From Alphaproteobacteria bacterium (GTDB lineage: Bacteria; Pseudomonadota; Alphaproteobacteria; UBA8366): DNA of 64,000 nucleotides. Of the stretch, positions 46,223 to 63,007 are shown piece by piece. The DNA lies in assembly GCA_009377445.1 (NCBI GenBank), contig WHUA01000001.1:776759-840758 (forward strand), read 5' to 3'. The notes beneath the pieces were generated by a model. It did no database searches. It was not told the origin of the DNA and saw only the letters and a program-made list of their open reading frames with translations. Position numbers and translations under genes: made by a program. The first letter of the stretch is position 1. Every line of letters starts with the position of its first letter.

Positions 46223-46312
46223 GGAGAGGTGCCGGAGTGGTCGATCGGGGCGGTCTCGAAAACCGTTGTGCGCGTAAGCGTACCGAGGGTTCGAATCCCT
46301 CCCTCTCCGCCA
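46223..46312 (+). tRNA. tRNA-Ser (anticodon CGA)
   Basis: GGAGAGG/CCTCTCC-GCCA acceptor, GG D-loop, GCGGT-CTCGAAA-ACCGT anticodon arm, long variable arm, GGTTCGAATCC T-arm, encoded CCA. Confidence 0.97.
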
Positions 46313-46539
46313 GACCTTAAGTCATTAATACATAATAATATTATGTTTCTGCGACAAGTCGAAATTCGCGACTCTTTTCCGCCGGTTGGCGCCATGATCC
46401 GTGTCGTAGTCGGCACCTGAGACCGGTCGGATGCGGCGAACGGGGGGCCGATATCGCAAAGGTCTCTTACGCAGGTGTTGGTGGTACGGCAAAATGCGCG
46501 GCGGCGACGTACGCGCCGGACCAGCCGGCGTAATCAGGG

Positions 46540-46713
46540 ATGAACGGGGCGGCCGTGGCCGAAGGCAAAACAGGCGACATCGTCCAGATCCGAATAATCC
46601 TGCAGGAGATCGAGCCGTTCGACGCGGCGGACATGGAGACCGACAAGGTCGAAGCGATGCTGAGCCGGGTTAGCGGCGGCAGGCGCAAGGGCCGAGGAAG
46701 AGCAAGGCCTGAC
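46540..46713 (+). pseudogene. Possible internally deleted pRiA4b ORF-3-like gene
   Basis: IVQIRIILQEIEP (N-terminal-like) joined to FDAADMETDKVEAMLSRV..RRKG (C-terminal-like); family recalled by eye. Confidence 0.4.
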
Positions 46714-46739
46714 AATGGCCATGGGAATCCGACCGGCGA

Positions 46740-48479
46740 TCAATCGATCCCGAGCAGGGTGCGCTGTTCTTCCCAGGCGCCGGGGAGCCGAACTTCGTTC
46801 GCAAGGCGCTTGGCTGTCAACTCGACCGGATGCCGATCGCGCAGGACCGCCGTGACGATGTCGGGCGCGAGGAAACCCAGCCGGAGGATGCGGGAGAAGT
46901 AGGACCCGCCGACGCCGGCTTCGGCGGCGAGATCTGCCATCGTCCTCCCGCCGTTGTGCATCACCATGGCATGATACCGGTGGGCGTGGACGAGAACCCG
47001 GCATAGGCTGTGGTCGGGCTTACGGCGCGCGCCGCTGCCCACGCCGTCGATCAACAGCCTGGTTTCCATGCCGGTCCGCTTGAGCCGGGCCGGCACCATC
47101 AAGGTGACGCTGGGCGAATCGGCCTCGGCTGGTTGTGTGCGATGCCGCCACTCGTTCCCATCCCGGAGGACCGCGGGCAGCCGGCTTGGCAGAATGCGGA
47201 TTTCCAGCGTTTCGCGTAGGACGTCGATGCGCTCGACAAGGGTCGAGATGACAGCACGTCGGTCCCGCGGCGTGAGGCTGGGCCAGCGGTCCGCGAGGTC
47301 GGCGGCGCGGGCGAAAAGCTCCGTGCATTCATTCACGTCCGTTATCTGGGACTCTATCGCGCCGAATACCTCCGCCTCGCTCGCCAGGAACTGGCGCAGG
47401 CGATTCTCGACGAGGACTTCGAGATCGCCCGCGGGGACGCGGCGCCCGCGCGGCGCATCGGACCGCCGACCCCGGACGAGCCCGCGAGAGACATAGTACC
47501 GGTAGCGGGTGCCCTTCTTGTTGGCATGGCTCGGGATCATCCGGGCGCCGGCATCGTCGTGGATCAGTCCGGCGAGGAGGCTTGGCTGCGCCGCTCCGAC
47601 GCCGGTTGCCCGGTCGATCCGATTGTCCGTGAGCTTCCGCTGCACCTCGTCCCACAGGGTCTCGTCGATAATGGCGTCATGGTCGCCGGGGTAGCTGTTT
47701 TCCTTGTGCACGATCTTGCCGCGGTAAATGCGGTTCTGCAGCATCAGATAGAGCGCCCCGCGGGCCAGCGGCTTGCCGCCCGTCCTGCGACCGTATTTGT
47801 CGATGCGCAGTTTGCTCACGATACCGTCGCGGTCGAGTTCGTCCTTCAACGCCCAGACCGAGCCGAGCACGGCATAGCGCCGGTAGACGCGGCGGACCGT
47901 CTCGGCTTCGCGATGATTGACCACCAGCTTGCGGTCCCTCACGTCGTAGCCGAGCGGCGGCAGGCCCCCCATCCACATACCCTTCTTCTTGGAGGCGGCG
48001 ATCTTGTCGCGGATGCGCTCGCCCGTGACCTCGCGCTCGAATTGGGCGAAGCTGAGCAGCATGTTGAGGGTCAACCGGCCCATCGAGGTCGTGGTGTTGA
48101 ACTGCTGCGTGACCGAGACGAACGAGACGCCGTGGACGTCGAACACCTCGACGATCTTGGCGAAGTCGCCGAGCGAGCGGGTCAGGCGGTCGACCTTATA
48201 GACCACGACCGTGTCGATCCGGCCCGCCTCGATGTCGGCGAGGAGTCGCGTCAGAGCCGGTCGCTCCATGGTCGCGCCCGATATGCCGCCATCGTCGTAC
48301 ATCTCGGGCAGGCAGCTCCAACCTTCATGCTTCTGGCTGAGGATATAGGCCTCGCAGGCATCACGTTGAGCATCGAGCGAGTTGTAGTCTTGCTCGAGCC
48401 CCTCCTCATGAGACTTGCGGGTATAGATCGCACAACGGATCCGGGCGGATCGGGCTGCGGCCTTGGTGGCCTTACGCAT
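46740..48479 (-). CDS. Large serine recombinase (resolvase + recombinase domains)
   Basis: CAIYTRKS catalytic Ser, SLDAQR, YDDGGISG, VYKVDRLTRS, FAQFERE..GERIRDK. Confidence 0.93.
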   Translation of the reverse strand: MRKATKAAARSARIRCAIYTRKSHEEGLEQDYNSLDAQRDACEAYILSQKHEGWSCLPEMYDDGGISGATMERPALTRLLADIEAGRIDTVVVYKVDRLTRSLGDFAKIVEVFDVHGVSFVSVTQQFNTTTSMGRLTLNMLLSFAQFEREVTGERIRDKIAASKKKGMWMGGLPPLGYDVRDRKLVVNHREAETVRRVYRRYAVLGSVWALKDELDRDGIVSKLRIDKYGRRTGGKPLARGALYLMLQNRIYRGKIVHKENSYPGDHDAIIDETLWDEVQRKLTDNRIDRATGVGAAQPSLLAGLIHDDAGARMIPSHANKKGTRYRYYVSRGLVRGRRSDAPRGRRVPAGDLEVLVENRLRQFLASEAEVFGAIESQITDVNECTELFARAADLADRWPSLTPRDRRAVISTLVERIDVLRETLEIRILPSRLPAVLRDGNEWRHRTQPAEADSPSVTLMVPARLKRTGMETRLLIDGVGSGARRKPDHSLCRVLVHAHRYHAMVMHNGGRTMADLAAEAGVGGSYFSRILRLGFLAPDIVTAVLRDRHPVELTAKRLANEVRLPGAWEEQRTLLGID

Positions 48480-48981
48480 CGTCGGACTCCGCGTTCTCGG
48501 CGGGGCTCTTCGTTCTTTCCGTCATCCCAAAGAAGCGCGGGCCCGACCAATGAACGCCGGTGATCTCGCGGGCAATGACCGATAGCGAGCGCCAGAGCCT
48601 GCCCTTCCATTCGAAGCCGTCTTCGCGGACGACCACGATGTGGCTCTCGCTGCGCCATTCACGCACCAGCCGGGCGCCCGGCTTGAGCCGGGCGACCCGG
48701 TTCCGGGTCACGTCACCGTTCCGTTCCAGAGTCTTCGCCAGACCGGCGAGCCTATGCTTCGTGGCCACACTGTGGCCTCCATAAGCCTGCTCCTGGATCT
48801 TCCAGGCGACGCCGAGCTTGAGCAGCTCGCGCGCCACGCGCATCGGCGGCTGGGCGCGATAGAGCCGCCGCCACTCGCGGCGCAGGTCGGTGTAGTCCAT
48901 CTGCTCAAGGGCCTGGAGCCTGGCTGAAACGGTATCCGGCGTGCCGTCAATGGCGCCGCCGTTTGTGTCTGCTGTGGTCAT
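48472..48981 (-). CDS. DUF2924 family protein
   Basis: LRREWRRLY..PP, AWKIQEQAYGG, LKPGARLVREWR, SLSVIAREITG..WSGPRFFG; overlaps the recombinase start. Confidence 0.88.
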   Translation of the reverse strand: MTTADTNGGAIDGTPDTVSARLQALEQMDYTDLRREWRRLYRAQPPMRVARELLKLGVAWKIQEQAYGGHSVATKHRLAGLAKTLERNGDVTRNRVARLKPGARLVREWRSESHIVVVREDGFEWKGRLWRSLSVIAREITGVHWSGPRFFGMTERTKSPAENAESDDA

Positions 48982-49212
48982 CGGCCTTCCTTCGTTTCCG
49001 GCCGCGTCCGATACGCGGCCTCCCACCGCCCGAAGCCCCGGACGGCGCGCCGTCGGGGCCGGGCGAAGGGCGAAGGTCTTATTCTTGGCCCGGGATAGTA
49101 CCGCTCTGTTGCGCGCGGAAGTCCAGTGGAAAGACCACCGAAAAGGGGGGTCTCCCGACCAAGGCTGTGCTAAAAAACGCGTAAATCCAAGGACTTACAA
49201 GAGGCATACCGT

Positions 49213-61931: not shown

Positions 61932-61959
61932 ATATTTGACCCTGTTGAGAATGTGATCG

Positions 61960-62225
61960 CTAAGCAGCAACCTCAGTCATTACTCCCGCTGTGTCCGCCA
62001 GATCAGTGGGGGCGTGCACGCTGCGACCCGCGGCAAGCTGATTGGCTAAGCTGTGAAGTCGGCGCCTTGTCATCTTACTCAATCCGCCATGGGCTGCCTC
62101 TTGGATCTTCCAAGCGATGCCGCGGGTCAGCAAATCACCGCTTAGCCGTGGCGGCGGTTCGGTGCGATAGTATCTCTGCCACTCGGTGCGGAAGTCGCGG
62201 ATCTTCATATCGGTGATTGCAGCCC
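61960..62225 (-). pseudogene. Truncated DUF2924-like gene (N-terminal half)
   Basis: DFRTEWQRYYRTEPPPRLSGDLLTRGIAWKIQEAAHGGLS aligns by eye to 48472-48981; C-terminal half absent. Confidence 0.7.
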
Positions 62226-62694
62226 GGCGATGCCAGTTACGCCGCCCAGCATTGCGATGGCACCTATCGTATTCAGGCGGGGCGGGCCGGCCGCTGCGCC
62301 CTGACGTCGATCGGTATCCGGTACTGGGACCACCTGCCGCGAGTCTTTGCCTGGCCGGCCGATCGCGATCACGTACCATGTCCCTTTGGGGCCGGGTACC
62401 AGCTGGCGCGGAACGCACTTGCCGCTGCGGTGATGCTTGGCGGTAGCCTCGACCCGGCCAGCGGTCACGTGCTCGTCGTGTACGACGTCCGTAACCCTGC
62501 TTTCCAGGCCGGGGGCACGGCGGGCAGGCAATGGGAGGCCGCGGTTGCCGCATGCCCTTATCCCGGGATTGCTACGCCGCCTGAGCTGGCAGCGTTTGCT
62601 CGGGTATATCGCTGAGGCGGAGGATCTTGCGTGGCTCGTCGATTCCCTGGGGGAGAAATACGGCCTGGTGCCGGATCAACGACCGCGGAAATGA
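62217..62694 (+). pseudogene. Frameshifted 3' remnant of a restriction-endonuclease-like gene (PGN_0703-like?)
   Basis: HCDG..RC.L..IGIRYW..PCPFGAGYQLARNALAA..YDVRNPAF continues after a frameshift near 62567 as GLLRRLSWQRLL..LGEKYGL. Confidence 0.45.
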
Positions 62695-62738
62695 CCCATG
62701 CTGCCGTAAGCTGGGTCGTCGCAACTTCTTCACATCTT

Positions 62739-62909
62739 TACCCTGCTTATTGAGAAATTTTCCCTGCAAGGGCACGCTAGATTCCCTGTTCGGCATACAA
62801 GAGAAATTTCTTCTAAGTGCCTATGATTTGGGCTTTAATCCGGTAATTGCCCGCGTACGAAAGGCTGAATCTGGCAAAAATCCCTGTATTTTCCCTGTTT
62901 AGCAGGGAA
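62739..62909 (+). repeat. Subterminal CCCTG repeats
   Basis: CCCTG at 62741, 62762, 62784, 62882, 62893 plus inverted CAGGG at about 62903. Confidence 0.65.
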
Positions 62910-62923
62910 TCGGCCCGGAGACG

Positions 62924-63007
62924 GGTTCGCTGCAGACTGCCTGCACCGCCATGTATAACTATCTGATATATAATATTTTATTCTGATCTAAGGTATCCCC
63001 GAATAGG
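62924..63007 (+). repeat. Junction 4: att-like site
   Basis: GGTTCG..CCGCCA (62951) then TAACT, TGATA and CCGAATAG at the same offsets as junctions 2 and 3. Confidence 0.75.

Follow-up and report, generated by a model that had tools for sequence, protein, structure and literature searches.

Composite islands in which large serine recombinases (LSRs) stack units behind one gene are known from the staphylococcal cassette chromosome (SCC). A report on these islands describes the stacking of ccr-bearing and ccr-less (psiSCC) units at the rlmH end, as in a 40-kb island made up of a psiSCC, an SCC with ccrC and SCCmec (bioRxiv 10.1101/336396). At tRNA genes, 125 tandem arrays were reported with Islander (PMC4383910), and tycheposons form tandem junctions and employ large serine recombinases in a minority of cases (bioRxiv 10.1101/2020.12.28.424599). 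Prophage AcaML1 of Acidithiobacillus caldus integrates in a transfer-messenger RNA (tmRNA) gene with a 10-bp repeat (PMC3826726 Table 2). Here, a tandem array behind a tRNA-Ser(CGA) gene is set beside these systems. It lies in a 64-kb window (the whole stretch of DNA that was analysed; contig WHUA01000001.1, positions 776,759 to 840,758) from the genome of an Alphaproteobacteria bacterium. The array probably arose by stacked integrations of related elements, which pair an LSR with a DUF2924 gene, at the 3' end of the tRNA gene, followed by decay, rather than through a new cassette-capture system.

By analogy, the SCC composite island is the functionally closest system. It resembles the array in LSR-mediated insertion at the 3' end of one conserved gene, tandem stacking, short direct repeats and recombinase-less units mixed in. 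The target there is rlmH, whereas here it is a tRNA gene end in an alphaproteobacterium, and the recombinase here belongs to a distant LSR lineage travelling with DUF2924. The conserved region flanking the attachment (att) site is also much longer here, about 190 nt with GAGAC-N37-GTCTC, and any mobility of the present array is putative. Islands at tRNA genes, the accretion of integrative and conjugative elements with cis-mobilizable elements (ICE-CIME) and tycheposons show a further likeness, in that one tRNA is reused, partial tRNA copies stand at the boundaries and integrase-less units lie beside intact ones. Nevertheless, these systems are overwhelmingly driven by tyrosine integrases, and the boundary copies in the present array are imperfect mimics, not exact duplications.

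Open reading frames (ORFs) of the array between 46313 and 64000 were scanned with Pfam. The features that define the array are the following, in window coordinates.

46223-46312, + strand: tRNA-Ser(CGA), the anchor of the array, whose end is junction 1 (J1) (ARAGORN; Rfam tRNA, 55.5 bits)
46313-46481, + strand: unit 1 left end, with box M (CTTAAGTCATTAATAC at 46317), TTTCCGCC and GAGAC-N38-GTCTC (nhmmer E 5e-24; motif spacing)
46740-48479, - strand: large serine recombinase LSR1, 579 amino acids, intact (Pfam Resolvase 1.7e-39, Recombinase 3.1e-11)
48472-49026, - strand: DUF2924 gene, overlapping the LSR1 start by 8 nt (PF11149, 3.9e-46)
49098-49238, + strand: unit 1 right end, with the DUF2924 leader motif (49098-49129), GGTCTC (49149-49154), an inverted M-like box (49185-49198) and a tRNA-Ser-like block (49204-49238), as read from the sequence
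49239-49427, + strand: unit 2 left end, complete signature, GAGAC at +104, N37 spacing (nhmmer E 2e-21; 80% identical to the unit 3 left end)
52270-52338, + strand: unit 2 right end, with an inverted M box (52270-52286, minus-strand read; position weight matrix (PWM) score 11.6 on the minus strand) and a tRNA-like block (52304-52338; 74% identical to the tRNA end) leading to J3
52339-52527, + strand: unit 3 left end, complete signature, GAGAC-N37-GTCTC at +104, with no family LSR behind it (nhmmer E 1.5e-20)
46415-46470, 49342-49395 and 52442-52495: GAGAC-N37/38-GTCTC pairs of this array (motif spacing)
62035-62229, - strand: DUF2924 N-terminal stub adjoining a glutathione S-transferase (GST) gene (Pfam DUF2924 positions 5-70 of 135; tblastn amino acids 36-100)
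62876-62951, + strand: J4 left half, a conserved module of about 75 nt ending in CCGCCA and not derived from tRNA-Ser (82-87% identical to C14:274806-274869 and 288259-288336)
62952-63007, + strand: J4 right half, a truncated left end with box M at 62955 and CCGAATAGG at +48 (65-nt repeat family, 71%; PWM 13.6)

The anchor is the single tRNA that ARAGORN found in the window, and its last 35 nt are identical in two same-genus relatives. The pattern GGTTCG-N(10-25)-CCGCCA occurs on the + strand at 46288-46312, 49214-49238, 52314-52338 and 62924-62951 (J1 to J4); the whole window holds 5 matches against 0.54 expected, and none of 100 shuffles reached 5. A preliminary description of this DNA had proposed a tandem array anchored on tRNA-Ser with four such junctions. 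The tRNA, the pattern at the four positions and its offsets, which were read directly, and the unit lengths of 2926, 3100 and 10613 bp (units 1, 2 and 3) were all borne out. J2 to J4 have TGATA at +13 and CCGAATAG at exactly +48, and J1 to J3 have TTTCCGCC near +63 and GAGAC near +104. Repeat searches returned a 35-nt family at J1 to J3 (identity to the tRNA end, 86% and 74%) and a 65-nt family at J2 to J4 (71% identity), with J2 and J3 80% identical over 222 nt. Exact identity in all of J1 to J3 is confined to CTCCGCCA.

An att-like repeat stands in one orientation at each unit boundary, J4 sharing the right half and the terminal CCGCCA only. When a profile of the family left end, described below, was run with nhmmer against the whole 4.55-Mb genome, it detected only J1 to J3, with the E values listed above, plus one weak relic. 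Its score drops with distance from the tRNA (86, 78 and 75 bits for J1 to J3), and J4 falls below detection. The proposal of four att-like junctions stands for J1 to J3 but not fully for J4, where the left half is not a tRNA-Ser copy and the right half extends for only about 57 nt. The motif and profile matches support an assignment of the junctions as att-type sites of a DUF2924 + LSR system.

Unit 1 (46313-49238) has LSR1 and DUF2924 as its only genes and is an intact, autonomous-looking minimal element of 2.9 kb. The LSR1 translation shows YTRKS and DRLTRS motifs, and its phmmer matches include the integrase structures of TP901-1, phiC31 and SPbeta. The LSR1 stop codon is separated from the 3' end of tRNA-Ser by a 428-nt gap. 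The left end of unit 1 is homologous to the regions downstream of the LSR in the related loci L005-L008 and L018, and its right end has all three parts of a family right end, laid out as in L007 and other loci. The J2 block (49204-49238) shares 86% identity with the resident tRNA end and 91-94% with genuine tRNA-Ser genes from other genera. An AlphaFold model of the DUF2924 protein (38 sequences; mean predicted local distance difference test score 78) has a four-helix N-terminal part and a C-terminal part with a small beta-sheet and a helix, and the invariant residues include W52, R54, G117 and the motif W160-S-G-x-R-F-F. No relatives were found in the PDB by sequence or by fold (best Foldseek E 0.35), and mentions of DUF2924 in the searched literature were confined to Wolbachia papers. 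As a guess, the protein might be a directionality factor or an accessory DNA binder.

Relatives of LSR1 were collected by scanning one genome per species, which gave at least 586 loci; the best 80 (49-74% identity) were analysed. A tRNA on the opposite strand adjoins the recombinase in at least 45 of the 80, the targets being Ser (all isoacceptors), Gln, Ala, Met and Arg. The gap from LSR stop to tRNA is 199-476 nt in most of these 45 loci and larger in two. A near-full-length DUF2924 is encoded in 62 of the 80 loci, and in the canonical element the LSR and DUF2924 genes are read towards the tRNA. In Islander (2014) and in textbook practice, tRNA-gene targeting is given to tyrosine integrases only; this locus and the at least 45 related ones place a serine-recombinase lineage at tRNA ends across Alphaproteobacteria and beyond. 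The DUF2924-LSR family is widespread but barely described, with an unusually long, conserved att region and minimal, cargo-less elements of 2.7-3.4 kb.

The family left end was defined from an alignment of 30 sequences: J1 to J3 and, in 27 loci, the 170 nt that follow the tRNA end. It spans about 190 nt and begins with box M (CTAAGTCATTGATAT; [C/T/A]TAAnnnnTTGATAT) 2-5 nt after the CCA, followed by a TTTCCGC..CTTAG segment and an inverted GAGAC-N37/38-GTCTC that starts at +100 to +114, mostly at +102 to +105. Since TTTCCGCC and GAGAC recur throughout the family, they are family cis elements, usually located between the tRNA and the stop codon of the LSR gene. An RNA hairpin formed by GAGAC and GTCTC was considered and rejected. 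With a constant spacing and flanks that lack covariation, the motifs are better read as paired protein-binding sites; these pairs, together with a further GTCTC at the right end, are candidates for accessory sites at which proteins bind in a complex att region. Family right ends consist of a leader motif (ACGCTCTnTTGCnGCGGAAGTCCAGT) just upstream of DUF2924, a GTCTC and a T-arm/acceptor-like block ending in GCCA. The tRNA-like right-end block that had been proposed for this array recurs across the family, and it has a counterpart in AcaML1.

AcaML1 is the closest characterised relative of LSR1. Its split LSR (Gp3 + Gp2) is 47% identical to LSR1 over amino acids 19-421, and a DUF2924 gene (Gp4) lies upstream; T-arm-like sequence stands at its right end, just before the repeat CCACCATTTA. 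The DUF2924 + LSR module and a tRNA-like 3' end as target are common to both. Nevertheless, AcaML1 is a single insertion, a phage of 59 kb whose recombinase is split, whereas the element described here is a cargo-less 2.9-kb unit in an array, and the M-like box of AcaML1 is about 200 nt away and inverted.

Left ends in the other loci are attached to an LSR gene in 54 of 58 cases, at a distance of 59-344 nt (most 75-170 nt), the four orphans being L007, L023, L034 and L070. The orphan left ends of units 2 and 3 are on this evidence a derived state, and the two units look as if they had lost a recombinase. The more alike two LSRs are, the more alike are their left ends (r = 0.82). Those of units 2 and 3 are closest to one another (78%); all others stay at or below 50% to either of them, and neither of the two is among the eight left ends closest to J1. 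Given this co-evolution and the different sub-lineage, LSR1 is probably not the cognate recombinase of units 2 and 3. No LSR of the unit 2/3 sub-lineage was found in this genome. Pattern scans of metagenomes for relatives of the two left ends gave 0 matches, and in a DNA search of 91 genomes of this order the outside matches covered essentially the tRNA-like part only.

Unit 2 (49239-52338) keeps both end structures and has no recombinase genes; tblastn found no LSR or DUF2924 remnant in it, so that it has either lost these genes or never had them. At 49398-49455, a 23-nt direct duplication (GGCAGTTTTTCAGTACCTCTTCG / GGCCATTTTTCAGCACCTCTTCG) was observed, with copies 35 nt apart. It sits exactly where the homology between the unit 2 and unit 3 left ends stops, and may therefore be the scar of a deletion that took the recombinase genes. 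Small minus-strand ORFs over the J2 and J3 left ends, where the DNA is conserved and non-coding, are probably not genes.

Unit 3 (52339-62951) is a decayed mosaic. Its left end is canonical, inserts of foreign origin include an unrelated ParB-ParB-LSR operon, and a GST gene stands where most of an LSR-DUF2924 operon of its own would be expected. Its DUF2924 stub, the sole relic of a family LSR or DUF2924 gene that tblastn returned for units 2 and 3, has the position and orientation of the DUF2924 gene in unit 1, which argues that unit 3 was once autonomous. The GST has a 92% identical counterpart at C14:274979-275894, directly beside the C-terminal relic of an LSR, a left end and a tRNA-Ala-like block. 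With one GST beside a DUF2924 stub and the other beside an LSR relic, a GST has replaced most of an LSR-DUF2924 operon, leaving a relic in two arrays. The preliminary description was right about the intact LSR and DUF2924 of unit 1, which looks autonomous, and about a recombinase-free unit 2 with both ends, as seen with Pfam, tblastn and the end profile. It had credited unit 3 with a DUF2924 remnant alone, but an intact LSR of another family (LSR2) lies there as well. Units 2 and 3 are most plausibly fossils; at most, they would be non-autonomous derivatives of the psiSCC/CIME kind.

At J4, likeness of the left half to tRNA-Ser is limited to GGTTCG and CCGCCA. The module of about 75 nt is made up of TTCCCTG repeats, a TTCCCTG/CAGGGAA palindrome and GAGACGGGTTCGC...GACTGC...CC(G/A)CCA. 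It occurs twice more in this genome, on either side of a 13.5-kb island that carries a tyrosine integrase, and the same module stands directly left of box M and an LSR in L019, L031, L035, L039 and L053, with unrelated genes beyond it. The combination of this module with box M is a recurrent junction type. A tmRNA or tRNA fragment was considered for the J4 left half and rejected, since neither ARAGORN nor Rfam (E <= 1) gave a match and the sequence is unlike the two-piece tmRNA of the genome itself. The right half follows the left-end signature for only about 57 nt and then diverges; it escapes the full profile and is a genuine but truncated left end.

Tandem arrays and tRNA-like right-end blocks recur in L007, L012, L020, L040, L043, L047 and L070. 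Two-LSR tandems are present in L012 and L047, an orphan second unit in L007, and an internal tandem junction of a right-end block with box M in L020. Short contigs were examined as possible excised circles and rejected: terminal overlaps were absent, and L020 proved to be that internal junction. At the tRNA-Ser of L070, positions +1 to +242 form a 242-bp unit that consists of a left end and a right-end mimic only. Cargo-less LSR + DUF2924 units are found in L012, L029, L033 and L059, with the block about 2.7-3.1 kb from the tRNA and no recognisable left end after it; that these are truly solitary is uncertain. It is pure speculation that the size of the minimal elements would fit a gene-transfer-agent head.

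A second LSR-DUF2924 pair is present in this genome at tRNA-Ala(CGC), in the same geometry, and is also found in a same-genus relative. The region downstream of this tRNA (C14:272000-313311) is a second array of about 40 kb. It contains this LSR-DUF2924 pair as an intact unit, the tyrosine-integrase island and the GST paralogue of unit 3, as well as a perfect 33-nt tRNA-Ala copy at 276323-276355 attached to the LSR C-terminal relic.

In the mechanism proposed for the family, the recombinase would pair the tRNA end with the tRNA-like site of the element, and strands would be exchanged between the T-arm and about 3 nt past the CCA. The occupied tRNA, or the tRNA-like block at a right end, may still be usable, and elements would then accumulate one behind the other, head to tail. 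Targets share no conserved sequence on their downstream side, which would explain the reuse of occupied sites and the formation of arrays. The right-end mimic may rebuild a target.

For the position of the crossover, exchange at or just after the CCA, with an element-borne mimic at the right end, is slightly favoured. AcaML1 ends in ...GGACGCGGGTTCGGTTCCGTGTTCCGCCACCATTTA and has a 10-bp repeat; Gln-type blocks whose T-stems cannot pair lie beside intact LSR units (L020, L033, L059); and right ends keep GTCTC-N9-GGTTCGAATC irrespective of the tRNA that hosts the element (L043). It is somewhat less probable that strands are exchanged within the tRNA, whose 3' end would be replaced by one that the element brings. 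It would fit the J2 and J3 blocks and flanks, which are uniformly about 80% identical, the second unit of L007, in which a Ser(CGA)-type block is joined to an arm like the right side of J1, and the close match of the J2 block to tRNA-Ser genes of other genera, with T-stem pairing kept. That neither placement is correct seems improbable. If it is true that the enzyme reads the near-universal T-arm/CCA end, the family would provide a broad-host-range landing system of interest for genome engineering.

Several observations weigh against stacked integration followed by decay as the origin of the whole array. The left half of J4 is a conserved module of another kind than a tRNA-Ser end, and the DNA behind it (unit 4) may be native or separately acquired rather than a member of the family. 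The far end of the island was searched for a terminal tRNA-like copy, and none was found. Exact-protein look-ups for strain-level variation yielded one 3.4-kb contig breaking in the tRNA and nothing for LSR1, and no pair of empty and occupied sites among strains. The well-preserved ends of unit 2 could mean that it is still mobilised and not a fossil. The orphan unit stands nearest the tRNA in L070 and L023, with the intact unit farther away, and an order in which the newest element adjoins the tRNA is thus no strict rule.

The last arrangement is what would be expected if right-end mimics served as targets, as in the earlier proposal of an active platform, likened to an integron run by a serine recombinase, in which LSR1/DUF2924 moves recombinase-free cassettes (units 2, 3 and 4) and the right ends regenerate a tRNA-3'-like target. 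We consider this proposal unlikely. Although unit 2 combines a complete left end and a right-end block with the lack of a recombinase, its left end and that of unit 3 come from a different sub-lineage, and left ends evolve together with their LSRs. The 242-bp unit of L070 shows that ends can occur alone, but orphan left ends are rare in the sample as a whole. The right-end blocks are family-wide and the GST-bearing decayed unit is present in two arrays of the genome, whereas no relatives of the unit 2/3 left ends with other cargo appeared in the metagenome scans or the 91 genomes of the order. Moreover, the DUF2924 stub speaks for a once autonomous unit 3, and J4 is truncated. Integrons rely on the tyrosine recombinase IntI, attI, the promoter Pc and attC sites that fold as single strands; most of their cassettes carry one promoterless ORF, and all share the same orientation. 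The array resembles them in the general idea alone of one recombinase locus followed by a row of site-bounded units. It has serine recombinases only and units of 2.9-10.6 kb with several genes on both strands, bounded by left ends of about 190 nt and tRNA-like blocks; there is neither an attI/Pc platform nor a common promoter or attC-like site. Every integron-defining feature tested here is absent. The claim to a new kind of integron fails, and the suggestion that nothing of the kind had been described as a system was too strong, SCC/psiSCC composite islands and ICE/CIME accretion being known analogues. The array is an instructive member of an under-described family.

The island as a whole, about 42 kb, has a low GC content and is missing from same-genus relatives, in which other islands of 11-13 kb occupy the same tRNA-Ser, with synteny returning near window-equivalent 88.1 kb. 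These observations would fit an island that was stacked in another host and arrived en bloc by a single integration through the unit 1 recombinase, its internal junctions being inherited scars. The J2 and J3 blocks are also closer to tRNA-Ser of other genera than to the resident tRNA, and the genome has no cognate LSR for units 2 and 3. Such an arrival is nevertheless quite improbable, as an attR-like copy is missing from the far end and the paralogues of the unit 3 GST and the J4 module in the other array of the same genome point to local rearrangement. It would moreover still need an earlier stepwise accretion, and so changes the place and not the mechanism.

It is very improbable that the repeats are displaced tRNA 3' ends left by tyrosine-integrase islands, with the LSR units as mere neighbours. 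In relatives, the tRNA-Ser(CGA) is also used by other islands (in G017, a perfect repeat of 35 nt lies 12.8 kb beyond the tRNA, on its downstream side), and the tRNA-Ala array holds both a perfect tRNA-Ala copy and a tyrosine integrase, but the ORFs scanned in the present array yielded no Phage_integrase domain and no tyrosine integrase. Its blocks are imperfect (74-86%), unlike fresh repeats of the tyrosine type, and every junction is followed by an LSR-family left end in fixed register. The linkage of tRNA end, box M and LSR across the family largely refutes this origin.

The array offers a natural series of intact, end-only and decayed units, which is usable for testing the cis elements that the enzyme requires. 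A further-reaching and rather doubtful idea is that the family reads tRNA T-arm/acceptor DNA, each element carrying a T-arm mimic at its right end, and that ends-only units are non-autonomous riders mobilised in trans, a class comparable to miniature inverted-repeat transposable elements (MITEs) or psiSCC. GAGAC-N37/38-GTCTC and box M would then be accessory sites for DUF2924 or for an extra C-terminal domain of the LSR, in a complex, resolvase-like att. Candidate riders are unit 2, the ends-only unit of L070 and the GST unit found in two arrays.

The remaining annotated features are the cargo of units 2 and 3 and the beginning of unit 4.

50022-50618, + strand: metallo-beta-lactamase (MBL)-fold protein, unit 2 cargo (Pfam Lactamase_B_5 6.7e-29)
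50809-51606 and 51551-51976, + strand: two pentapeptide-repeat proteins, unit 2 cargo (Pfam Pentapeptide 7.1e-47 and 7.2e-29)
53631-54554, - strand: RepB/ParB gene (Pfam)
54611-55471, - strand: ParB gene (Pfam)
55450-57024, - strand: second large serine recombinase LSR2, 524 amino acids, intact, with Resolvase and Recombinase domains (Pfam)
61017-61970, - strand: GST gene (Pfam GST)
63008-64000: start of unit 4, a low-GC polysaccharide/O-antigen cluster with no recombinase (GC profile; Pfam on L001/L002)

The low-GC island runs about 22-25 kb past the window, to roughly window-equivalent 84-88 kb (C14:861-865 kb). The polysaccharide genes of unit 4 encode a Wzm/Wzt ABC transporter, a DegT aminotransferase, a sulfotransferase, several methyltransferases, two AsnB proteins and epimerases, and the cluster behind the J4 stub is absent from same-genus relatives. 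In unit 3, further genes are a HEPN-like gene and an MBL/beta-CASP relic on the minus strand, with the GST, and a helix-turn-helix (HTH) gene on the plus strand. LSR2 has just about 26% identity with the LSR1 family and shares an operon with the two ParB/RepB genes; this RepB/ParB-ParB-LSR2 operon, with a divergent HTH gene, occupies 53631-57839 and is perhaps a mobile module in its own right that entered unit 3. A 119-nt direct repeat (57572-57690 and 59225-59343, 81% identity) encloses 1.65 kb in the same unit.

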